IMG/VR virus record: IMGVR_UViG_3300042401_002002
DNA: 64,000 nucleotides
Reading direction: 5' to 3' (one strand)
From: a virus
Taxonomy: Duplodnaviria > Heunggongvirae > Uroviricota > Caudoviricetes
A program made the translations under genes and the position numbers. The notes below the pieces were generated by a model. That model had not been told where the DNA came from. It saw only the letters and a list, made by a program, of their open reading frames with translations, and made no database searches. Positions 4,056 to 29,736 of the stretch are shown here, in pieces (the first letter of the stretch is position 1; each line of letters begins with the position of its first letter).

Positions 4056-7000
4056 ATGCCAATTAATAATATTACAGACCCAAACGACACACTTATAATA
4101 GGTTCTAATTTAACTGAACAAAACTTGGTACCTGAATTACAAAATCAAGTACCTTATGTTGAGTTAGTTGTTTATAGAAATAAAGTTGCAGATTATTATG
4201 TTGCAGAGAATGGTGAAATAAAAGAATATATCACACAACAATCTGTTCCAATACCTTTAATGGGTTATGACCCATCAACAAATGTTTATGAAAATAATTT
4301 TGAAAGTGATAGTGATGTATTTCAAAATTTTGGTATTCTTTCAATTGATATAAATATCAAAAGTAAATTCATCCCAACTGTAAATATTAAATTCATTGAT
4401 GTTAAAGGACAATCAACATTTAATACAGACACTAAAACAAGTAATGCTGGTTATCGTAGTTTATTCGATTTACCACCAGCTACCTATGTCTTAAAAGTAA
4501 AGGGTGTTTTTGGTAATATTGTTAGATATGATTTACACTTACTTAAAACTAATAGTACTTTTAATTCTTCAAACGGTAATTTTGAAATAGCTTGTGAATT
4601 TGTTGGAAAATCATTTATCCCTTTAACTGATATAAAATTAGGCTGGATTAAAGCGGTTAGTAGAATGAATACACCTGATATTGATTCTACTAACACCAAT
4701 AATGGTTCTAATGTAAATAATTTTCAAGATTTGATTTGGCAAACTAAACAAATGTATAGTGATGTACGTAAATTAGTTAATGGTAGTAAAGAAACTGAAA
4801 AGTTAAATCAAAATAATATTAATAAAGATTTATGTGTTTCATATTTGGTTGATTTAAGAAAACGTTATGGAACTGTACTTAACAAAAGAAATAACAACTC
4901 AAGTACAACACTAAACGAAACAAAAACCATAACATTATATAATCTTTATACGCACGGTTCATCATTTAACCCAGGTGAAGAAATATTTATTGTATCAGGT
5001 AAGACTTATGAAGAGTTTTATGGTACTACTTACACTACAACAAGTACTGATATAACAAAAACAGTAGAAACTTTATACACTGAATTTAATACATATAAGA
5101 CTGAGATAATTAGATTTAACAAAACAAAATATAAAGATTTAAATATTGACATAGTTGATACTGATTTAGAAGTATTTTATACTAAACCTGTAAGTTTATT
5201 TGACAATAATAACAATGGGTTATCAACTGACATAACTGTTTACTATAACTATACACCGTTATATAAAAAAATTCAAGAAGCTTCAACTAAAGCACAAAAT
5301 GAATTAACTAAAACTGCTACTGATTTAGATAGTAAAATAAGTGAAATAGTAAATGATACAGTTGGTTTTGATTTAAAAATTAAAAAAGTTTTTGATATTT
5401 TAATGGGTGATGCTTCTAAGTTTTTAAGGTTATTAAAAGAATCTGGTGATATATCTGAAGATAGACGAAATTTAGTCAATTCAGGTGCTTCTACGATAAG
5501 GAATGATGTACCCTTAGTTGCATACCCTAGAGTTATTAATAATAACGGAGAGACGATATATCCGGGTGAAATGGAACAGTTTAAAAACTGGAAGGAAGTC
5601 AAGTTTGTTGAATCATTTCTTGATGCTTATTTAGCTACATTAAGAATCGACAAAGAGTTTCAAGATTCATTAGCAAATAGCGATGATTCACCTAGAGAAT
5701 ATATTCCAATAGGTACTTTAGATTTTAATTCATTAAAATACAGAAGTAGTTCTAGTATGGATGATATTTTTACTAATTTATTTAAAAGATATTATATTTT
5801 AAGTCAGTATAGTTATAAAGGTAGATGGGAAAATAATGATATAGGGTTTTTTGAACGCCAAACGTTTTTTAATGCATTATATAAACAATTAGGTGAAAAT
5901 GAATCTGAAAACGTATGTAGAAATATGTTTGATTTAACGTTATTAAAACAATTTAAAACTAATTTAACTGCAATAAAAAATGAAACACAAAAAAATGGTT
6001 TACAATATTTCTTAAACAATAGAAATAATTTTAGGAATACTGTTAGTACACTAAAAGAAGGGTTAAAACCTAACACAGGTACTAGTATAGATGGTGAATT
6101 TATAACTATAAATAAAAAAGAAATTAAGGGTGAAAATTTATTTATAATACCTAAGCCTAAAATTTTCGATGCAACTACACTAGATAGACAAAAAGAAGAA
6201 CCAACGGCAAGTTTACTTGATTCTATAACAGGTTTCTTTAGTTCATTTAATAGTTTTTTTAATAATATAACTAACTTATTTAAAACTGATTTAGAACTAA
6301 TAGGTATTGAAAAAATAACTGAAAATAATGTAACATTAATTATCGACAAAAGCATGTCTGAAAACACTGACGGTTATTACAGTGATTTTTATGTTAGTAC
6401 TGATAAAAACGTGTTATATAAACTTTGTGAAGAATATCTCACAGATAAAGCTAATTTTTTAACTGATAATAATAGTAGGTTTACTTATTTTGGTCAAAAT
6501 ACACCAAGGAATTATGAAAACTTAACAAATAAATTAAAACAAAAGTTTTCTTTACCTTCCATTGTTGAAATACCTAAAATTACGGTTATTAATATCGGTA
6601 GATTAATGTTTATTTACAGTGCATTACCTGAGTTAAATACTTCTGATAGAGAAATATTTATAGATGCATACAAAGAATACTTGCATAATGACACTGAAAA
6701 TATAATTAAAAAAGAAATTAGTATCATAAACGATTTCTTAAGTGTATCTAATGCAACTGAATATCTCGTAGATAAATTACCAAAAAATTCAGTTATTTAT
6801 AGTTTACTAGAACCTATGTATATACAAAACAATAGTTCTTATACATTTCTATTACCTGAAGAGACCAATGATGATATAACAAAAGGTGAATTCTTCCCAT
6901 TAATTTCAGGTAACACTGAAAATTATAACACAAAAGACACACCAAATATTAATTTTACTGAGGTTTTAAATCAAATACAACCAAAAATTAAACTATTTCT

Positions 7001-8183
7001 TGATGCTTTTATTGATAACTCATTAAAAATATTAAATGAAAAAATAAAATCTATTGAAACAACTGAAAAAGATTTATCATCTAAAATAAAAGATAATGAT
7101 GTTAAACGTCAAATTTATTATTCATTTAAAAACATATATGATAAATGGTTATCTGATGATGTTAAAATACCTGATGTAAATAATAGTAATAATGGATACC
7201 TAGAAACTATATTTTTGGATTATGAAAACCAATTTCAATTTGTTGACCGTACTCTAAAAGATATTGGACCAGAAATGGTGATTGATATTGAACCATTAAT
7301 TGAAGCTGTTGAAAGTGGACCAGATACATCTTTATACACAGGTATTAGTTTACTGTTATCTAAAAATAACTTTGAGTTCTTTCCATTACCTAACCTAATT
7401 AATTATGATGATAAAAATTTATGGTCTGATGTATTCAAAATAAATACATTTTTACAAACAACAAACAGAACTCAGTTTACCTGCATGTATATTGGTGGTT
7501 ATAGTACATCTAAAGATGACTATGTGTCATTTACTGATAACAGACCTACAGATTTCACAAAAAACGATATAGGTGTTGTTAATTCATTTAATGTATATTT
7601 TGGAAAACAAAATCAAATGATTTTTCAAGATATTAAATTAACAACAACTGATATTAAAGAAACTGGTGAAAGTTTAGCTTTAGTTGATAGAATATTTCAA
7701 AATAACGGAACAAATGTACCTGTTATTAAAACACAAAGTTTATTTGAAGTTTATGAAAAACGTGCATATGCTTGTGAAATGACAATACCTTTAGGTAATA
7801 CATGTATTCAACCAACTTGTTATTTTGAATTAAAAAATGTACAAATGTTTAATGGGTGTTATATTATACTAGAAGTTAACCATAATATTGAAAGTGGTTC
7901 AAATACAGTTAAAACAACTATTAAAGGTACTAGAATAGGCAAGTTTCCACCACCAATAATAACTAAAATGATTGTGTTAATTAATGGACTAGAAGGTAAT
8001 GTTGCTAAAATTATCGCAGACAATAGTGCAAATAGAAATACAACAAATGATAAATATGTAAACCCTGATTTTAATCCTAATACAATGACAAGACAATGGT
8101 CAAGAAAACAAGGTAAACAAACACCTAGTATTATTAGATACAACAGTAAAACAAGTGGTTTTGAATTTAAACCTGACATGTAA
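4056..8183 (+). CDS. Large virion structural protein (1375 aa); function unassigned
   Basis: Long uninterrupted ORF in the structural module. No transglycosylase or coiled-coil signature was seen, so tape-measure is not asserted. Confidence 0.6.
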   Translation: MPINNITDPNDTLIIGSNLTEQNLVPELQNQVPYVELVVYRNKVADYYVAENGEIKEYITQQSVPIPLMGYDPSTNVYENNFESDSDVFQNFGILSIDINIKSKFIPTVNIKFIDVKGQSTFNTDTKTSNAGYRSLFDLPPATYVLKVKGVFGNIVRYDLHLLKTNSTFNSSNGNFEIACEFVGKSFIPLTDIKLGWIKAVSRMNTPDIDSTNTNNGSNVNNFQDLIWQTKQMYSDVRKLVNGSKETEKLNQNNINKDLCVSYLVDLRKRYGTVLNKRNNNSSTTLNETKTITLYNLYTHGSSFNPGEEIFIVSGKTYEEFYGTTYTTTSTDITKTVETLYTEFNTYKTEIIRFNKTKYKDLNIDIVDTDLEVFYTKPVSLFDNNNNGLSTDITVYYNYTPLYKKIQEASTKAQNELTKTATDLDSKISEIVNDTVGFDLKIKKVFDILMGDASKFLRLLKESGDISEDRRNLVNSGASTIRNDVPLVAYPRVINNNGETIYPGEMEQFKNWKEVKFVESFLDAYLATLRIDKEFQDSLANSDDSPREYIPIGTLDFNSLKYRSSSSMDDIFTNLFKRYYILSQYSYKGRWENNDIGFFERQTFFNALYKQLGENESENVCRNMFDLTLLKQFKTNLTAIKNETQKNGLQYFLNNRNNFRNTVSTLKEGLKPNTGTSIDGEFITINKKEIKGENLFIIPKPKIFDATTLDRQKEEPTASLLDSITGFFSSFNSFFNNITNLFKTDLELIGIEKITENNVTLIIDKSMSENTDGYYSDFYVSTDKNVLYKLCEEYLTDKANFLTDNNSRFTYFGQNTPRNYENLTNKLKQKFSLPSIVEIPKITVINIGRLMFIYSALPELNTSDREIFIDAYKEYLHNDTENIIKKEISIINDFLSVSNATEYLVDKLPKNSVIYSLLEPMYIQNNSSYTFLLPEETNDDITKGEFFPLISGNTENYNTKDTPNINFTEVLNQIQPKIKLFLDAFIDNSLKILNEKIKSIETTEKDLSSKIKDNDVKRQIYYSFKNIYDKWLSDDVKIPDVNNSNNGYLETIFLDYENQFQFVDRTLKDIGPEMVIDIEPLIEAVESGPDTSLYTGISLLLSKNNFEFFPLPNLINYDDKNLWSDVFKINTFLQTTNRTQFTCMYIGGYSTSKDDYVSFTDNRPTDFTKNDIGVVNSFNVYFGKQNQMIFQDIKLTTTDIKETGESLALVDRIFQNNGTNVPVIKTQSLFEVYEKRAYACEMTIPLGNTCIQPTCYFELKNVQMFNGCYIILEVNHNIESGSNTVKTTIKGTRIGKFPPPIITKMIVLINGLEGNVAKIIADNSANRNTTNDKYVNPDFNPNTMTRQWSRKQGKQTPSIIRYNSKTSGFEFKPDM

Positions 8184-12439: not shown

Positions 12440-13255
12440 TTGATTATGAATGTAAAGGGTGAATCAACTCTCGAAAAATTAAAAAATATTTTAAGAGTTA
12501 AAAATTATAGTGATAAAACAATAAATAATTATATACACTGTGTTGGGGTTTTTATAAACTCACATAATAAACAAACTTATCATTTAAATGAACAAGATTT
12601 AAAAACATATCTTCTAAATTATAATTATAGTTCTGTTTCTCAACAAAATCAAATTATTTCTTCTCTAAAATTATTTTATAAATATATTTTGGAGAAGAAA
12701 AATATACACTTAGATAAAATAGAACGACCTCGTTCAGAAAAGAAATTACCGAAAATAATTGATTCAGAATCTATTTTAAATAACCTTTCTAAAATAGAAA
12801 ATTTAAAGCATAGAACAATATTAAGTTTAACTTATAGCGTTGGTTTGAGAGTTTCAGAAGTCGTGAATTTAAAAATTGGTGATATTGATTCAAAAAGAAT
12901 GATTATTAATATAATCAATGGAAAAGGCAGAAAAGATAGAATTGTTCCGCTATCTCAAAATATTCTTAATTTATTGCGTGAATATTATAAAGAATATAAA
13001 CCGAAAGAATATTTATTTAACGGTCAAAATTCAAATCAATATTCTATAAAATCAATACAGAATATTTATAAAAAATATATTGATGATAAAACATCTGTAC
13101 ATAATTTACGACATAGTTGTTTTACAAATTTATTAGAAAATGATACCGATATAATGATAATTAAAGAAATCGCAGGTCATTCAAATATTAAAACAACGCA
13201 AATTTATACTCACGTTTCGACTAAATTACTTAACAAAGTGAAATTACCAATATAA
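12440..13255 (+). CDS. Tyrosine site-specific recombinase (XerD-like integrase or invertase; 271 aa, no arm-binding domain)
   Basis: C-terminal LRHSCFTNLLE...AGHSNIKTTQIYTHV matches the R..H-x-x-R...Y catalytic signature. Confidence 0.85.
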   Translation: MIMNVKGESTLEKLKNILRVKNYSDKTINNYIHCVGVFINSHNKQTYHLNEQDLKTYLLNYNYSSVSQQNQIISSLKLFYKYILEKKNIHLDKIERPRSEKKLPKIIDSESILNNLSKIENLKHRTILSLTYSVGLRVSEVVNLKIGDIDSKRMIINIINGKGRKDRIVPLSQNILNLLREYYKEYKPKEYLFNGQNSNQYSIKSIQNIYKKYIDDKTSVHNLRHSCFTNLLENDTDIMIIKEIAGHSNIKTTQIYTHVSTKLLNKVKLPI

Positions 13256-19246: not shown

Positions 19247-22039
19247 ATGGCTAAAAAGTATTTTACTCCAGAACAAGTTAATCATATTATTGATTGTTAC
19301 GAAAATAAAAATTATTCTATTAAAAATATAGCTGTGGAATACAGATGTGACCCTGGTACTATTACTAGGGTCTTAAATGAAAATGACGTAAAAATTAAAG
19401 ATTATAGGATACCATTTACGCCTGAACAAGAAGAGTATATTAAAATACAATATAACAATGGTAAAAGTACAGTCAAATTAGGTGAAGAATTTGGTTGTTC
19501 AGCTAAAGCTATTGGGTCTTTCTTGAAAAGAAATGAAATAGTTGTAACTAAATCAACATTATTGTGTGATGAAGATATATCTAACATTATTTTAGATTAC
19601 ATTGAAAATTCACTTACTTTAGAAGTTATTTCCGCAAAATATAATATTGCTAAAAGAAGACTTTCAGATATTTTACAAGAAAAGGGTATTGAAACAAAAA
19701 ATAAATTATATAAAACATTTTCAGAAGAAGATGTTAAAGAGATTATCAAAATGTACACTATCGGATTTATTAGTTTAAAGAAGATAGGTGAAAAATATAA
19801 TTGCGATAAAAGTGTTATTAGTAATCTTCTAAAGAAAAACAAGATTGAAATATATGATAGAAACCTTAAACACCATTTAATTGACGATGAAACCGTTTGT
19901 AATGAACATATTAACGGTTTATCAATAAATGATTTAAGTAAAAAATATGGTTGTTCTGACACAGTTATTACTAGAATTTTACAAAAAAATAACATTGAAA
20001 CTATTAATCATAGATTTTATAATTTTTCTAAAGAACAAGTTGATGAATTAATTAGGTTATACACAACTGAACTTAAACCAACATCTGAGTTATCTGTTTT
20101 ATTTGACTGTACTGTTGATAGAGTTAATAAGATTTTACATGATAATAATGTATCTTTAATTAAACAAGCAGCAAATAAAATAACTTTCTCTACTGAAGAT
20201 ATTGATAAAATAAAAAGTTTACACAAAACAATGTCTAACAAAGAAATAGGTAGTTTATTTAATTGTAGTCCTGATACAATCAGACGACTTCTAAATAAGG
20301 AAGGTGTTAATACAAGTAAAAATTATCAAACCGAACAAAGTGTCATTGATAATATTGTTATTGATTATTCAATAAATAAACTTAGTACTAGAACATTATC
20401 TGAAAAATATAATTTCTCTCAAACGTATATTAGTAAGGTTTTAAAAGAAAATAATGTTGAAGCTAATTTAAGATATATAATTTCAGTTTCTTCTGATGAA
20501 GAGAAAGAAATTATTAGAAAACATGTTGAAGATAGAAAAACTTTAACTGAGATTAGTAATGAATATGGCATTAATATTAAATTTTTAAGTGAAAATATCT
20601 TTAAAAAGAATAATATTAATATTCAACTTAAAAAACCTGCTCAAGAGAAATTAAATATTGAACAAATATTAACCGAACTAAAAACAGGTAAAGGTATTTC
20701 AACTATCGCTAGAGAGAATAATTGTTCTTTCGGTACTATAAACTCAATAGCTATTAGTAATGGAATTAAAACAACAAATGAATTAACAGATGTTTTTACT
20801 AATGAGTTGATTCTTAAAAAAGAAAATAGAAGATTTGTATTTGATAATTATCAAACTAAATTTGTTATTGAAAAATACACTAATGGTGCAACAATAAAAC
20901 AAATTAGTAATTTCCTTAAAGTTGACTATACTACAATCCACAGGGTACTTGTAAATAACAATATAAAGGTTCAACATAAATTATTAAAAACATTTACTGA
21001 ACAAGTTGAAGAAGATATCTGTTCAGAATACGTTGATAATAACAAAACTATGTTAGAAATTGGCAAACTATACAATGTGTCACAATCAGTTATTAGAAAA
21101 GTTCTAATAAAACACAACGTAGAAATTACCAATAATTATTATTCATCGGTTAACGAAAATAAAATTCGTTATATTCTTGGTTATTTTATTCCAACTATTC
21201 ACAAGAAATCAGATTGTGATAATATTTTGCAAGCTAAGGAAATAGACATTATTGATTATACCAAAAAGATTGGTATAGAATATAACGGAACATATTTTCA
21301 TAGAAGCGAGAATAAATCCGAAACTTATCATATTGATAAAACAAAAGAAGCTTCGTCTGCCGGTTATAAACTGTATCATGTTTTTGATGATGAATATGTA
21401 CATGATTCTGTTAAAATAATAAACCGACTTTTGAAGTTATTTAAAACAGGTTTGTATATTACTGAAGATACTTATGATGAACTAGAAGAATGTTTCTTCA
21501 GCAATACTAGTTACGATGAAATTTACATTGAAGGTTTAGTTAAAACCAAACTACCACTTTCTGAATGTACGATAACTAAAGTTGAACCAACTAAACAATA
21601 TTATCAGTTTTACACTGCGTTTGGTTTATTGAAATCTTACGATGAAACTATTAATAATGTCAATTACAATATTGAACATAAAGAATACGGTTTAATTGGT
21701 TATATTAGTATTAATAAAACAACCAATACTGTTGAAAATTTATTCATTGAAGATGATTATGTAATTACAGGTTTAAACAAAAGAATCTTTGATTTATATT
21801 TAAATGAATTTAAACCAACTGAGTTATTTATTGAAATTGACAGAAGATACGCTTCAGAGCCAGAGAATTTATCTGGTTTATCATTTGAGTTAATTAACGA
21901 AACAGAACCTAGAATTCATTATTTTAAGAATTATTCAAGATATATCGCAACTAATGAAACTAATTTAGAATTGGATTCTGATGTTGAGTGGAACATTATT
22001 CACGATTGTGGGACTTGGAAATATAAATTGATTAAATAA
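19247..22039 (+). CDS. 930-aa protein with about 13 tandem HTH-like modules and a C-terminal putative Vsr/DUF559-like nuclease domain
   Basis: Repeated ~48-aa units (..IA.EY.CS..TI.R.L..N.I..), then IDIIDYTKKIGIEYNGTYFH. Confidence 0.55.
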   Translation: MAKKYFTPEQVNHIIDCYENKNYSIKNIAVEYRCDPGTITRVLNENDVKIKDYRIPFTPEQEEYIKIQYNNGKSTVKLGEEFGCSAKAIGSFLKRNEIVVTKSTLLCDEDISNIILDYIENSLTLEVISAKYNIAKRRLSDILQEKGIETKNKLYKTFSEEDVKEIIKMYTIGFISLKKIGEKYNCDKSVISNLLKKNKIEIYDRNLKHHLIDDETVCNEHINGLSINDLSKKYGCSDTVITRILQKNNIETINHRFYNFSKEQVDELIRLYTTELKPTSELSVLFDCTVDRVNKILHDNNVSLIKQAANKITFSTEDIDKIKSLHKTMSNKEIGSLFNCSPDTIRRLLNKEGVNTSKNYQTEQSVIDNIVIDYSINKLSTRTLSEKYNFSQTYISKVLKENNVEANLRYIISVSSDEEKEIIRKHVEDRKTLTEISNEYGINIKFLSENIFKKNNINIQLKKPAQEKLNIEQILTELKTGKGISTIARENNCSFGTINSIAISNGIKTTNELTDVFTNELILKKENRRFVFDNYQTKFVIEKYTNGATIKQISNFLKVDYTTIHRVLVNNNIKVQHKLLKTFTEQVEEDICSEYVDNNKTMLEIGKLYNVSQSVIRKVLIKHNVEITNNYYSSVNENKIRYILGYFIPTIHKKSDCDNILQAKEIDIIDYTKKIGIEYNGTYFHRSENKSETYHIDKTKEASSAGYKLYHVFDDEYVHDSVKIINRLLKLFKTGLYITEDTYDELEECFFSNTSYDEIYIEGLVKTKLPLSECTITKVEPTKQYYQFYTAFGLLKSYDETINNVNYNIEHKEYGLIGYISINKTTNTVENLFIEDDYVITGLNKRIFDLYLNEFKPTELFIEIDRRYASEPENLSGLSFELINETEPRIHYFKNYSRYIATNETNLELDSDVEWNIIHDCGTWKYKLIK

Positions 22040-22093: not shown

Positions 22094-25045
22094 ATGTTTA
22101 ATAACAAACCTAAAGAAATTGAATTGATAAATGAAGGTTTAATTCCAAGTATATTATCACATCAAGAAATGTTAAAAATGGGTGCGACAGGTGCTTTATC
22201 AAGAGCATTTGAAAGATATATTCTTTTAGATAAAATAGAAGGATTAGACCCAGAACCTTCTACATGGGGTGATGGTTATGAATTTAAAAAAGGTGAAGAA
22301 ATTAAAAGTTCAATCGAAGTTATTTACGATAAAGACCGTGATATTTATTTTTTACAAAACGGTAATCATCGCATTAAACAAGCTAGAGTTAACGGTGATA
22401 AATATATACGTGCATTTATACAACCAGATAATGGTAAAATAGGTAATGATGCAAAATTATCTATAAGTGAATCATTAAATGAAACACGACTTAACGAAGG
22501 TTACGAAGAAATTAAAGATATTAATGAATTAGCTAATGATATTATATATTCATTAAGTTATAAATTAAATGCAACAAAAACACCTAGTAAAAGTAACCCA
22601 GGTACATATTTATATGAATTTAATAAAGCTATTACTACAATAGAAGAATCTATTAATTTTCAAAAAACTGTTAAATATCAAAATTTTACATCTAATAATT
22701 TTAAAAACTTTTGTGATAAGTTTAAAAATATTTCAATTACTTTTGAAAAAGGTTCAAAGGATAATGAAGGTAGATACAATCTTAATACTAAGAGTATTAT
22801 ATTATTTATTACAGATGAAAAAGAACTAGAAATTAATCAAGATTTAAATATTGATAATAAAGTTACAACTACTAAAGATATATATTTTAAAATTCATGGT
22901 AAGTTCATTTCTATATTAGAACATGAATTACAACATGTTTATGATGACTATATTTCAAAAGGTCAAGCTTTTAATGTTAAACAAACTAAACATGAATACG
23001 ATTATACTCAATTTGATGATGCTAAAGAATATTTAAATTTACCTTATGAAGTTAATGCTAGATTTACTCAAGCTATTAATAAAATTAATTTCTTAGAATT
23101 AGTGGATTTTACTGATGATAATAAACAAATTGAAAGACCTTATGAATTTAAAAAAGTATTACGTGATTTTTTATATCAATTTCCACATAAACATTTGTTA
23201 AATCAAAATGTTAAAAATACTGTTATCAAAAGGTTATATAATATTTACAACAAAGCTATTGAAAAAGCTAAAACTGATGATAAAATTGAGTTAATTAAAG
23301 AAAATAACTTAGATTACACTACAACTGATGATAAAAATAATGTTTTAATTTATGTTGATGGTAATAAAATATTAAACAAATTAAAAACTGATTCACCAGA
23401 GTTTGATATTACTAATAAAGATAACCAAATTGGTAATAGAGTTGAGAAAGCTAAAGAGTTTATTAGTAATTACAAAACCGACAAAAGACCAATTCACCCT
23501 ACGACAGGTGAAAGAATAGATTATTTAGGTAAACATAGTTTTGAACCTTCAGTTGCATCTTTTGATATGAATGGTAAGTTAGGTTTTACTGACGGTAGAC
23601 ATAGAATATTAGCAGCAATTGAATCTGGAATAAACAAAGTAGGTGTATTAGTACCTAAAAACCAAGTAGATATGTTTAAAGATTTAATAAACGAATCCAA
23701 CTCACAACTTGAAGACACGTTTATTAAAATAAATTCACCAAATATTAAATCACACATTGATTCTTTAATTAATAAATACAGTGAGAAATCTGAGGTTATG
23801 AATTATATTAAACATGCTGATGAAGAATCAAATAAACCTGAGTATTCTATTTCATATACATATTGTAAAAAACTAATTAGTTTAGCTACTAATTTAAAAG
23901 ACAAACATGGTCTTGATAAAGATAAATTTGAATTATATGGTGGTTTTCCTCTTATAAATTATTTATCAAAAGAACTAAATAATAAACGTGAAATAATATC
24001 ACGTTCTAAAAAAATAAAAACTATGGCAGGATTTAATCACCAATATAACAAAGAACATGAAAGAGTTGGTTTAATTAAGAATGGTAAAAAATATGTTGAT
24101 AGAAATTTAAGAGAATGTATTGAATTAATTAAAGAATCTGAAGTTAAGGTAAATAAAGAAGCTTCATGTATTGTTTTATTAAATGAAGACAAAAAAATAT
24201 TATTACTTAAACGTAGTGATAAAACCCCTTGGGAACCTGGTAAATGGTCTTTAGTTGGTGGAAAGATTGATTTAGGTGAAAACGCTAAAGAAGCTGCTAT
24301 TAGAGAATGTGGTGAGGAAACAGGTTTAGGTATCAAAGGAAATAAATTAATTTATTGTTTCACAATGAAAGAGGATGACTATGAAGTTAATTTCTTTATT
24401 GGTGTTTCTGAAGGTAGTGATGTTAGATTAAATGGTGAACATACTGAATATAAATGGGTTAACCCAAATGAAATACCTGAACTAGAAACAGTACCTAATT
24501 TATTAGGTGAAATTAAAAAGTGTTTTGAAACGTTAAATGAAAATAAAGAAGAAACGGTTATTAACGAAGAATTCAATAAAACTGAATATTTAAAATGGAA
24601 ACGTAATAATGTAACATATAGAGGAATTAAAGAATTAGGTCAAGATAACAATGTTTATGGTTCTTTTGGTAAAGGTTTATATACTGTACCAGCTAGCAAT
24701 AAAGTTATGGCTAAAACTTTCGGAAAACTTTATTTTGTTGTAAATGGTATACCAAAAAATCCTAAAGTTGTTAATTCATTAAATGATGCTGAAATGTTCA
24801 GATATAATCTTATTAATGAATATTGTAAACAACATAATAACATTAAATCAGACGGATTTTTTGATGATAATACATCAATGGAAGCTGAAATGTTAAAGCT
24901 TGGTTATGATGGTTTTGTTATTAAAGGTAGAGAAATGGTTAATTATAAACCTGAAAATGATAAGGTTAAATATTTTTCAAATGAAAACCAATTAATTCAA
25001 TATTATGAAAACTTTATCGAAAACAATAATTCTGTTATTAACTAA
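22094..25045 (+). CDS. 983-aa multidomain protein: two ParB/Srx-like domains plus a NUDIX hydrolase domain
   Basis: LQNGNHRIKQA and GFTDGRHRILAAIESG (ParB-N-like); Nudix box GGKIDLGENAKEAAIRECGEETGL. Confidence 0.7.
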   Translation: MFNNKPKEIELINEGLIPSILSHQEMLKMGATGALSRAFERYILLDKIEGLDPEPSTWGDGYEFKKGEEIKSSIEVIYDKDRDIYFLQNGNHRIKQARVNGDKYIRAFIQPDNGKIGNDAKLSISESLNETRLNEGYEEIKDINELANDIIYSLSYKLNATKTPSKSNPGTYLYEFNKAITTIEESINFQKTVKYQNFTSNNFKNFCDKFKNISITFEKGSKDNEGRYNLNTKSIILFITDEKELEINQDLNIDNKVTTTKDIYFKIHGKFISILEHELQHVYDDYISKGQAFNVKQTKHEYDYTQFDDAKEYLNLPYEVNARFTQAINKINFLELVDFTDDNKQIERPYEFKKVLRDFLYQFPHKHLLNQNVKNTVIKRLYNIYNKAIEKAKTDDKIELIKENNLDYTTTDDKNNVLIYVDGNKILNKLKTDSPEFDITNKDNQIGNRVEKAKEFISNYKTDKRPIHPTTGERIDYLGKHSFEPSVASFDMNGKLGFTDGRHRILAAIESGINKVGVLVPKNQVDMFKDLINESNSQLEDTFIKINSPNIKSHIDSLINKYSEKSEVMNYIKHADEESNKPEYSISYTYCKKLISLATNLKDKHGLDKDKFELYGGFPLINYLSKELNNKREIISRSKKIKTMAGFNHQYNKEHERVGLIKNGKKYVDRNLRECIELIKESEVKVNKEASCIVLLNEDKKILLLKRSDKTPWEPGKWSLVGGKIDLGENAKEAAIRECGEETGLGIKGNKLIYCFTMKEDDYEVNFFIGVSEGSDVRLNGEHTEYKWVNPNEIPELETVPNLLGEIKKCFETLNENKEETVINEEFNKTEYLKWKRNNVTYRGIKELGQDNNVYGSFGKGLYTVPASNKVMAKTFGKLYFVVNGIPKNPKVVNSLNDAEMFRYNLINEYCKQHNNIKSDGFFDDNTSMEAEMLKLGYDGFVIKGREMVNYKPENDKVKYFSNENQLIQYYENFIENNNSVIN

Positions 25046-25375: not shown

Positions 25376-25882
25376 TTACTTAACAAAACCTTTTTTCTTA
25401 TGTTCAATATAATGTTTTGTTTTAAAATAATCAACATAAGTTTTTCCATTAAACACTAATACACCTTGAGGTTGACCTGGTGTAATTCCAATATGTAACC
25501 AATCTGGCATAACGACATCACCTTTCTCCCAAATAAGTTTTGTGAATTTTAAAGTTTTTCTGTTATTAACCAACCAAAAGAAAACTTGGTCACTTATTTC
25601 TTTACCATCCTTAATGAAAGTTTCATCAAATGCCTGACCATCTAAATGTTGTGATTTTTTAGCTGCACCTGGAATAGCATCGTTAACACGTTTACAACGA
25701 TAAGCAACGGTTGGTGAAAATGACCCAAATTGTTTTCTAATTGGTTCGGCTACTTCAATAGCTAATAATTTAAGATTTTCTATAATATTAGCTGGTGGAT
25801 TAAATTGTTCTTTAATCCCAAGACGCATTGCAGTTGCTGAAGAAGTAAATTCCCTCAGACTAAAATTTTCTGATAATTGCAT
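25376..25882 (-). CDS. Peptidase M15 (L-Ala-D-Glu/D-Ala-D-Ala peptidase-type) endolysin
   Basis: FSLREF...VAYRCKRVNDAIPGAAKKSQHLDGQAFD matches the Peptidase_M15_3 zinc-site pattern. Confidence 0.75.
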   Translation of the reverse strand: MQLSENFSLREFTSSATAMRLGIKEQFNPPANIIENLKLLAIEVAEPIRKQFGSFSPTVAYRCKRVNDAIPGAAKKSQHLDGQAFDETFIKDGKEISDQVFFWLVNNRKTLKFTKLIWEKGDVVMPDWLHIGITPGQPQGVLVFNGKTYVDYFKTKHYIEHKKKGFVK

Positions 25883-25921: not shown

Positions 25922-25950
25922 AACCTTTTCTATAACTTTGCGTTCAAGAA
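25922..25950 (+). promoter_or_regulatory. Class-A promoter (aaccttttcTATAACTTTGCGTTcaag)
   Basis: Exact 41-bp duplicate of the element at 26430..26470; contains TAacTTTG. Confidence 0.5.
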
Positions 25951-25967
25951 CATATAATTTATATAAA

Positions 25968-26434: not shown

Positions 26435-26462
26435 AACCTTTTCTATAACTTTGCGTTCAAGA
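26435..26462 (+). promoter_or_regulatory. Class-A promoter (duplicate)
   Basis: Identical to 25922..25950. Confidence 0.5.
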
Positions 26463-26489
26463 ACATATAATCAAAATATAAATAAAGAA

Positions 26490-27525: not shown

Positions 27526-28233
27526 ATGCAGTTCACACACGAATACAATTTAATCAAAATATTTCAGGAATCATTCTCATTTCCTGTTCTTTGTTATTCA
27601 CCGTTAAATAACAAAACAATTACATTAAGACATAACTTAATTAAAGAAGAAGCTGAAGAAACACAAGAAGGTATCGAACTTTACTTACAAAGAATTAAAG
27701 AAAATGTTTTACAACCAAAAGATGACTCTTTAGTTGAGATAGCGGATGGTTTAGGTGACTTAACCGTTGTAACATTAGGTAGTTTATTTACATTCGGTTT
27801 ATCTGTTGATTTAGAACTAGGTAAGAAATTTAGTTTACAAGCTCCCATGTATTTTAGAGATGATACTAGCACTATCATCTACCTTTTAGATAATTATATT
27901 TTAAAAGAATATGATGATTCAGTTAGTTTAGAAGATTATCATGGTGCTTTAAATTTAATTCTTTTAGAAATTAAAAGACTTTGGAATGTTTTCTTACCTA
28001 AAGTATCTTTTAAAGACATATATGAAGAAATTCATAATTCAAACATGTCAAAAGCTTGTGAGACAGAAGAAACAGCTTTAAAAACAATTGCACAACCTCA
28101 ATATAAAGATGTTAATTTATCTTACACTGTAACAGATGGTAGATATTTTGTTAGACGTGACGATAACAAACTAATCAAAAGTTGCGATTATAAACCTGCT
28201 AATTTAAGTCCTATTGTTTATGAAACTAAATAG
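27526..28233 (+). CDS. Possible MazG-like NTP pyrophosphohydrolase
   Basis: EEAEETQEG...VEIADGLGDLTVV resembles the MazG EExxE/ELGDxL motifs; weak. Confidence 0.4.
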   Translation: MQFTHEYNLIKIFQESFSFPVLCYSPLNNKTITLRHNLIKEEAEETQEGIELYLQRIKENVLQPKDDSLVEIADGLGDLTVVTLGSLFTFGLSVDLELGKKFSLQAPMYFRDDTSTIIYLLDNYILKEYDDSVSLEDYHGALNLILLEIKRLWNVFLPKVSFKDIYEEIHNSNMSKACETEETALKTIAQPQYKDVNLSYTVTDGRYFVRRDDNKLIKSCDYKPANLSPIVYETK

Positions 28234-28866: not shown

Positions 28867-29736
28867 ATGTTTATAAAATCAACAAACGATTTCGAGAAAA
28901 TTTACCAAGATATGTTTCAAGCCATTCATCAATATGGTGAATGGTCAACTGAAAAAGTACGTACCAAATACATAGATGGTACACCAGCTAAAAGAAAACA
29001 AATAATTGGTTATCAATTTAAATTTGATAACTCTACTGATGTAGTACCATTAGTTAGAAGTAGATTCATTCCTACTAAAGATGCTTTACGTGAGATGCAG
29101 TGGATTTGGATTATGCAATCTAACAAAGTACAAGACCTTAGAGATTTGGGTTGTAAATATTGGAACCAATGGGAGAAGGAAGATGGTACGATAGGTCCAT
29201 CTTATGGACATCAAATAGCTAAGTCTGTTTTCGGACACAAAAACCAATTAGATTATATTCTACATGAATTAAAAAACAATCCGGATTCAACTAGAATATT
29301 AACTGAACTTTGGAACACTAGTGATATTGATAACATGTCATTAACACCATGTATTCATTTAACACAATGGTCTGTTAATAATGGTAAAGTTCATTTAGAA
29401 GTTAGAGCAAGAAGCCAGGATTTTGCTTTAGGTTTATGTTCTAATGTATATCAGTATTCGATTTTACATAAAAAAGTTTGTCAACAAATAGGTTTACCAG
29501 CTGGTGATATGTTATATACTATTCATAATTTACATTATTATGACCGACATGAAGAGAATTTATTAAAACAATTTTCTGTTTATAATAATGAAATTAAAGG
29601 TTCTAAACTAGATGTTTTATCAACAGCTAACCTAACCAAACTAGATAGTATCTATGATTTTGTTGCTGATAAACATGTTGAATTAATAACGACCAACAAA
29701 GAATTACCAAAATATAAGTTTGAAATAGCAATATAA
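28867..29736 (+). CDS. Thymidylate synthase family protein (ThyA, or a dCMP/dUMP hydroxymethylase homolog)
   Basis: DSTRILTELWN and SLTPCIHLTQW...RSQDFALGLCSNVYQYSIL align to the ThyA RR..SAWN / LPPCH...QRS.D...G.PFNIASY core. Confidence 0.8.
   Translation: MFIKSTNDFEKIYQDMFQAIHQYGEWSTEKVRTKYIDGTPAKRKQIIGYQFKFDNSTDVVPLVRSRFIPTKDALREMQWIWIMQSNKVQDLRDLGCKYWNQWEKEDGTIGPSYGHQIAKSVFGHKNQLDYILHELKNNPDSTRILTELWNTSDIDNMSLTPCIHLTQWSVNNGKVHLEVRARSQDFALGLCSNVYQYSILHKKVCQQIGLPAGDMLYTIHNLHYYDRHEENLLKQFSVYNNEIKGSKLDVLSTANLTKLDSIYDFVADKHVELITTNKELPKYKFEIAI

Follow-up and report, generated by a model that had tools for sequence, protein, structure and literature searches.

A NUDIX-centred six-module protein of an uncultured jumbo phage, a probable effector of the polyvalent class

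Polyvalent proteins are proteins of phages and conjugative elements in which unrelated effector domains are joined in one polypeptide (Iyer, Burroughs, Anand, de Souza & Aravind 2017, PMC5512222). The class is defined by the presence of two to fifteen functionally unrelated domains per polypeptide; metallopeptidase (MPTase), ADP-ribosyltransferase (ART) and ParB domains are its hubs, the domains also occur alone, and orthologues have diverging architectures (PMC5512222). The authors proposed that such proteins are delivered together with the DNA, act early in infection and have their chain processed by the MPTase (PMC5512222). Examples are DdrB of phage P1, which combines ParB and MPTase domains, and the virion RNA polymerase (vRNAP) of N4-like phages. 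Here, we describe a gene located at positions 22094-25045 of a 64,000-nucleotide stretch (the window) of the IMG/VR virus record IMGVR_UViG_3300042401_002002 (Caudoviricetes). Its product is a chain of six modules (A-B-C-D-E-F) with short linkers between them, and it shares the ParB/Srx, zincin-like and ART-fold hub types with the polyvalent class. We consider it probable that this is a modular effector protein of that class, built in a jumbo phage around a core of module D and a NUDIX domain (module E), and we adopt delivery from the virion as its most likely mechanism.

The open reading frame (ORF) is complete and was found exactly as reported in a preliminary description of the window, which had been made from the nucleotide sequence without database searches. 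A protein of identical sequence is encoded on 4-5 independent contigs or samples, the longest contig being 265-308 kb, and an assembly or gene-calling artefact was therefore ruled out. The source is an uncultured jumbo phage (265-308 kb), whose distantly T4-like large terminase (TerL) shares at most 30% identity with that of any sequenced phage.

The preliminary description presented the protein as a fusion of two ParB-like domains with a NUDIX hydrolase. The NUDIX domain and both ParB-type motifs are present, but the layout was incomplete, as it missed the invariant HELQH motif of module B (aa 277-281), a C-terminal domain of 171 aa and the mosaic make-up of the protein; zincin-like, NUDIX-associated and ART-fold modules have to be added (Table 1). 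The whole protein and its separate segments were scanned with Pfam, PHROG, NCBIfam and PADLOC. NUDIX was the sole domain recognised, even when the other segments were scanned alone at E <= 10, a threshold at which the HMMER filters discard most matches above ~E 0.1. Neither Pfam nor PHROG gives a significant match for the other five modules. In a tblastn search of 50,697 phage genomes the match was confined to the NUDIX segment.

Table 1. Coordinates of the polyvalent protein gene, its modules and neighbouring genes in the 64,000-nucleotide window.
Feature	Position (nt)	Strand	Details
Polyvalent protein gene, complete ORF	22094..25045	+	983 aa plus stop; ATG start
Module A, probable ParB/Srx-like domain	22094..22477	+	aa 1-128
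Module B, zincin-like (MPTase-like) module	22478..23299	+	aa 129-402
Module C, predicted ParB/Srx-fold domain, Osa-like	23300..23728	+	aa 403-545; invariant D500-G-R-H-R504
Module D, always directly before the NUDIX domain	23729..24157	+	aa 546-688
Module E, NUDIX hydrolase domain	24158..24529	+	aa 689-812; Nudix box at nt 24260-24328
Module F, predicted ADP-ribosyltransferase-fold domain	24530..25042	+	aa 813-983; candidate triad R843/Y863/E947
930-aa ORF between TerL and the polyvalent gene	19247-22039	+	many tandem HTH-like repeats
M15-family endolysin-like peptidase	25376-25882	-	
MazG-like nucleotide pyrophosphohydrolase	27526-28233	+	
Thymidylate synthase (ThyA)	28867-29736	+	
Tyrosine-integrase-like gene	12440-13255	+	

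An exhaustive HMMER search with aa 1-690 retrieved 356 proteins, and four regions of the query matched independently: aa ~18-125 (A), ~130-400 (B), ~400-540 (C) and ~535-688 (D). All four occur as small proteins in their own right and also within larger ones that reach 5,653 aa, and every module of the chain exists alone or in other combinations. A fixed architecture in the relatives, which would be incompatible with mosaicism, is contradicted by the module map. Besides modules A to F, the relatives contain further modules, among them ParB3, a third ParB-like module with the motif DGHHR. The module orders are: A-C-D-E-G (P0002), B-ART2-Zn2-X-D-E-F (P0003), ParB3-ART2-M3-C-ART1-D-E-Zn2-G (P0004; 1,445 aa), B-ART1-D-E-G (P0005), M3-ParB3-C-ART1-Zn2-X-D-E-F (P0006), N7-A-ART1-ART2-Zn2-D-E-F (P0007), D-E-F (P0231) and D-E (P0220, P0273 and P0276). 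Relatives carry the Pfam domain ART-PolyVal, and giant relatives sharing module A or C contain Kinase-PolyVal, ART-PolyVal, PBECR5, LPD23 and SprT-like domains.

The locus of P0004 has the same synteny as the window, with genes for a GT25 glycosyltransferase, three conserved proteins, TerL, a multi-helix-turn-helix (multi-HTH) protein, the polyvalent protein, a 75-aa protein and an M15 peptidase. Orthologous loci in related phages retain the D-NUDIX core and exchange the other modules; since they differ in module content, the protein is not a common core replication protein, a possibility raised in the preliminary description as one that would count against its reading. In another phage contig (L001; 265 kb), ART-PolyVal, F and ParB3 are encoded by separate neighbouring genes. 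Genes for TnpB/Cas12f1-like, RlaP-family and Thg1-like proteins were found near these single-module genes (L001; 11620-13011, 13562-14794 and 15346-16152, respectively).

Module E is a NUDIX hydrolase domain with an intact catalytic box. It matches PF00293 at aa 690-797 (E = 5.8e-20; 72.1 bits vs a cutoff of 21.1), PHROG 1198 (E 2e-23) and PDB entry 3grn (E 2e-14). The Nudix box, GKIDLGENAKEAAIRECGEETGL (aa 723-745), fits the consensus GX5EX7REUXEEXGU and contains all of the catalytic residues (R737, E738, E741 and E742). It had been called perfect; near-perfect is more accurate, as the first 'U' position is occupied by Cys739 and not by I, L or V, and the string quoted earlier covered the right region but started one residue too early, at G722. 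The PHROG search also returned a 'portal protein' family, and a portal fusion was rejected because this match is limited to the NUDIX part of the profile.

The NUDIX domain is preceded by module D, for which no match was obtained in Pfam (segment scanned at E <= 10), in the PDB profile search or in PADLOC. The D-E adjacency is kept in all 15 of the D-bearing relatives, including stand-alone D-E proteins of ~300 aa, and the junction between D and E is devoid of the linker motif found at other junctions (see below). Among the closest NUDIX domains of cultured phages (~37-38% identity) are those of the portal-NUDIX fusions of the Bcep781 group (Bcep781 gp17, Bcep1 gp18 and Bcep43 gp17; PHROG 15528), with slightly higher values for Chryseobacterium phage MA9V-3 (39.2%) and an uncultured phage (38.9%). 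As in the Bcep781 group, the NUDIX domain of the window protein is part of a long phage polypeptide whose gene lies shortly downstream of that for TerL; in that group it is combined with the portal protein, whereas the window protein lacks a portal domain and combines NUDIX with ParB/Srx, zincin-like and ART-fold modules.

The JGI product name of the protein is '8-oxo-dGTP pyrophosphatase MutT', the closest PDB and NCBIfam matches of its NUDIX domain are MutT-, NudI- and NudG-like, and genes for a MazG-like protein and ThyA lie downstream. These data would suit a MutT-like sanitiser of the nucleotide pool combined with a partition-type ParB, serving the replication or segregation of a large genome. 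However, the equivalogs of MutT 8-oxo-dGTPase were matched below cutoff (TIGR00586, 27.9 vs 97.9 bits; PRK10776, 26 vs 148 bits), and the features of a partition ParB of the Spo0J/KorB type (an HTH domain, a C-terminal dimerisation domain and a ParA partner) were not found. We regard this explanation as largely refuted and highly improbable.

The two ParB-type motifs named in the preliminary description, GNHR and DGRHR, are present at aa 90-93 (module A) and aa 500-504 (module C), and G90, R93 and D500-R504 are invariant positions in their domain families; when the protein was shuffled with its composition preserved, only 0.8% of the shuffles contained a G[NRH]HR motif. Module A has the core 'PIEVxYD..Y.L..GNHR..QA..NG', which includes G90, N91, H92 and R93, and belongs to a family of at least 78 proteins, occurring alone and within giants of up to 5,589 aa. 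A profile built from 30 sequences of this family matched, among PDB entries, only KorB (8qa8; E 0.031) and SbnI (5ujd; E 1.8), both of which are ParB/Srx proteins that align to module A on 'PIxV...G.HR'. Pfam ParB_N was matched below threshold in two of the 30 family members (best E 0.0076). Judging from these motif and profile similarities, module A is probably a ParB/Srx domain.

Structure prediction was run on the single modules C and F. According to its model, module C has a ParB/Srx fold that is closest to Osa, the oncogenic suppression activity protein of plasmid pSa (PDB 4ovb), itself a ParB/Srx-fold protein. The DGRHR motif, invariant in 38 module C sequences, is placed in the model at the junction of a strand (residues 102-106) and a helix (108-116), so that module C carries a conserved active-site arginine motif after the central strand. 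Domain searches of the Pfam/CDD type gave no ParB support for either A or C; module C matched neither ParB_N (PF02195) nor ddrB-ParB in Pfam at E <= 10, nor any PDB entry in the sequence-profile search, and a word-indexed homologue search with it retrieved only three proteins. The ParB-type fold proposed earlier is thus supported for module C by structure prediction, where sequence domain searches had not shown one.

Direct comparisons of A with C (hhalign and cross-searches with hidden Markov models, HMMs) were not significant, and the two modules are therefore linked only via the ParB3 family. The ParB3 HMM gave median scores of ~8 bits on the A and C families, against -1 to -2 bits in shuffled sequences, and exceeded 10 bits in 18 of 74 segments from the A family and 16 of 53 from the C family but in none of 635 composition-matched shuffles. 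In MAFFT block alignments of aa 1-545, C-type fragments were stacked on A in all modes, and X-padding did not help.

Osa and module C share 16% sequence identity. Osa stands alone as a plasmid protein; module C is one of the inner modules of a phage polypeptide. ATPase and DNase activity has been reported for Osa (PMC5512222), and its PDB entry names it a plasmid fertility inhibition factor. Such a relationship, together with the rapid module turnover at one locus, which fits an arms race of any kind, would also suit competition between elements or superinfection exclusion, with Osa-like domains blocking or degrading foreign DNA and the ART and NUDIX domains disabling competitors. We consider this explanation quite improbable.

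Module B contains the motif HELQH. H277, E278, H281, D284 and E319 are invariant in 16 members of its family, which share 27-77% identity (only 27-31% with the query in the case of members outside its close relatives); an HExxH motif occurs by chance in 2.5% of shuffles of the protein. Exactly this pattern, in which HExxH is followed by an Asp at position +3 and by a Glu in a later helix, has been described for one phage-type clade among the zincin-like MPTases of polyvalent proteins (PMC5512222). Eight subthreshold matches were obtained in total with the 16 members (Peptidase_M76, Peptidase_M91, DUF4344 and SprT-like; best E 0.024), and the module B profile found no match among PDB sequences. 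On this motif pattern, module B appears to be a zincin metallopeptidase. In P0008 and P0009 (826 and 864 aa) B is joined directly to F, followed by a kinase-like module and a C-terminal domain Y (B-F-kinase-Y); the kinase-like label comes from a sequence pattern, with no significant Pfam match.

Module F, according to its predicted structure, has an ADP-ribosyltransferase fold. Three residues, R843 ('VTYRG'), Y863 ('GLYT') and E947 ('GRE'), are invariant in its family; in the model they fall on strands 1, 2 and 5, the strands that bear the triad in ARTs. They are a candidate catalytic triad, placed by motif and strand position and not by superposition. The fold is shared with ARTs of the diphtheria-toxin/PARP type and with those of the ART-PolyVal type (including the anti-CRISPR protein AcrF11 and the toxins MbcT and RES), with which F has no significant sequence or profile similarity. 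Its candidate R-Y-E triad mixes elements of the R-S-E and H-Y-E patterns, and in contrast to these ARTs F is a compact unit of ~160 aa, mostly found alone in uncultured large phages. Module F (aa 813-983) gave no Pfam match at E <= 10, nothing useful in the PDB profile search and no match in the 50,697 sequenced phage records (tblastn, E <= 0.01). An assignment to Pfam ART-PolyVal (PF18760) was rejected because of the absence of a Pfam match, an hhalign probability of 7.9% against the ART-PolyVal domains of the relatives (not significant) and the R-Y-E triad.

There are 313 homologues of module F, most of them unannotated stand-alone proteins of ~163 aa that are 55-70% identical to F of the window protein. 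The stand-alone family (P0011-P0130; L001 8001-8510, L006 7001-7507 and L008 7001-7519) is widespread on phage-like contigs from metagenomes, the contigs being up to 277 kb long, and F is fused to ART-PolyVal in P0084 and to a GNAT domain in P0130.

The pairing of NUDIX with an ART-fold domain has precedents. ART and Nudix proteins are often packaged in the virions of myoviruses and are predicted to act against NAD+-derived immune signals (PMC9503650), and jumbo phages fuse NAD+-utilising domains with a Macro, NADAR or Nudix partner as 'toggles' (PMC7824862). The NUDIX-ART adjacency in the window protein fits both surveys and, as in the toggles, a jumbo-phage protein combines directly adjoining NUDIX and NAD+-utilising (ART-fold) domains. 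It differs from the toggles and the packaged Nudix and ART proteins in that the pair lies within a larger polyvalent chain and the NUDIX domain has a dedicated N-terminal domain, D. As regards the T4 NudE and NadM clades, no T4 or NadM record was present among the phage tblastn matches, a search not aimed directly at clade membership.

The unrelated modules, the hub types, the stand-alone versions and the shifting architectures together place the protein in the polyvalent class. The number of unrelated domains, the mosaic domain network and the association with hub or hallmark domains all agree with the published description. The architecture had previously been called unusual, which holds only outside this framework, as such combinations are the rule in the class (PMC5512222). 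There are also differences. The constant core of the window protein and its orthologues is D-NUDIX, and NUDIX is mentioned only once in PMC5512222; modules A, B, C, D and F do not match the Pfam polyvalent-domain models, and the candidate triad of the ART-fold module is R-Y-E and not H-Y-D. In addition, the protein is encoded by an uncultured jumbo phage.

By analogy with P1 DdrB, T4 Alt and N4 vRNAP, the protein would be delivered from the virion together with the DNA, and its modules would work side by side against different host targets at an early stage of infection. The ParB/Srx modules may be DNA-nicking or DNA-binding enzymes dependent on nucleoside triphosphates. The D-NUDIX-ART end would work on the NAD+/ADP-ribose system: the ART domain could use NAD+ to modify a host macromolecule, and the NUDIX domain could hydrolyse ADP-ribose, NAD+ or ADP-ribose-derived molecules at their pyrophosphate bond, by which immune signals would be destroyed or ADP-ribose adducts trimmed. 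The zincin-like module B might process the chain at conserved (L/I)NE(S/T) linkers, or its targets might be host proteins. A linker motif of the form (L/I/V)(N/T)E(S/T/N/G/D), for example SLNET, LINESNS, TLNENK and KINESL, was noticed in the window protein and in the relatives P0002-P0007, P0147 and P0229. It occurs 41 times, and 28 of these sites are in junction zones, where 6.7 would be expected (nominal P 2e-13, a value inflated by the fact that the motif was defined after inspection and the sequences are related). These motifs could be protease cleavage sites or recombination joints.

A more elaborate form of this mechanism can be envisaged, in which D-NUDIX-ART is a coupled two-step enzyme and not a pair of independent effectors. 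The ART domain would ADP-ribosylate a host target or make an ADP-ribose-derived nucleotide, and the NUDIX domain, by cutting the pyrophosphate bond, would leave a phosphoribosyl mark that host erasers of the Macro/ARH type cannot remove; in parallel, F would represent a new phage ART/NADase clade of at least 313 clusters, which could have an anti-defence role in uncultured jumbo phages. The pair of mono-ADP-ribosyltransferase and phosphodiesterase domains in Legionella SidE proteins follows a similar logic. We consider this proposal improbable as it stands.

Several points weigh against a virion-delivered polyvalent effector. Neither ddrB-ParB nor the Pfam models of polyvalent peptidases were among the matches, even at E <= 10, and the protein contains no MuF, portal or known capsid-targeting domain, TerL alone being nearby. 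No NUDIX subfamily or substrate is indicated by the NCBIfam equivalogs, all of which score far under their cutoffs. To these have to be added the dissimilarity of F to ART-PolyVal, its R-Y-E triad in place of the H-Y-D of polyvalent ARTs, and the way in which the linker motif was defined. Delivery from the virion is assumed, and the folds proposed for A and B are deduced from sequence.

The same multi-enzyme protein could instead act where it is produced, within the infected cell, and be neither packaged nor injected. It would then be an early or middle polyprotein cut by the zincin-like module, or a large scaffold for enzymes acting on NAD, ADP-ribose and DNA. The missing virion-targeting, MuF and portal domains would agree with this, as would the position of TerL amid non-structural genes (M15 peptidase, MazG-like, ThyA, integrase-like and glycosyltransferase), the presence of the modules as ordinary separate genes in a non-structural region of another phage, and the stand-alone F genes, which sit among small hypothetical genes beside DHFR, radical-SAM and RlaP genes. 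The packaging of ART and Nudix proteins by myoviruses and the analogy with DdrB, Alt and vRNAP speak for delivery. We consider purely intracellular use rather unlikely, and virion delivery of a polyvalent effector is the explanation that we favour.

The gene had been described as lying next to packaging genes. TerL is indeed near, 2.9 kb upstream, but a 930-aa multi-HTH gene lies between the two and none of the adjacent genes encodes a portal, MuF or capsid protein, which makes proximity thin evidence. The 930-aa ORF matches PHROG families of HNH/homing endonucleases, DNA-binding proteins and transcriptional regulators, and its C-terminal ~300 aa are unlike its repeats; an 833-aa version occupies the same position in L004. 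The protein may be homing-endonuclease-like or regulatory. The neighbourhood is mixed and does not form a structural module. In L004, a sorting domain of the type IX secretion system (T9SS) is encoded by one of the neighbouring genes, a hint that the host may belong to the Bacteroidota.

Two further features of the window were observed. An exact 34-bp repeat, CTTTTCTATAACTTTGCGTTCAAGAACATATAAT, is present at 25925-25958 and 26438-26471 (+ strand), just upstream of + strand genes; it ends in TATAAT, and the chance expectation is zero matches. This repeat is a candidate phage promoter or regulatory element. Because of it, the mechanical ORF calls at 25938 and 26451 open with the same spurious 'MRSRTYN'. 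The second feature is a 1,375-aa ORF (4056-8183; + strand) with no PHROG match.

The analysis overturns nothing known. Within the polyvalent class, described in 2017, the window protein is set apart by its constant D-NUDIX core, by the in-place shuffling of modules in jumbo phages and by its five domain families that Pfam and PHROG do not significantly match. The analysis places an odd-looking 'ParB-ParB-NUDIX' protein in the polyvalent framework, which can be seen at work in an uncultured jumbo phage: at one locus the D-NUDIX core stays constant, and ParB/Srx, zincin-like, three types of ART, kinase-like and other modules are exchanged. These five families provide testable leads, among them a large, highly conserved one with a predicted ART fold and an R-Y-E candidate triad, seen only in metagenomic phage contigs. 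Further leads are the linker motif and the coupling of NUDIX with ART, which directs attention to NAD+/ADP-ribose as a field of conflict between phage and host, in which Thoeris, TIR, SIR2 and DarT-type defences take part.

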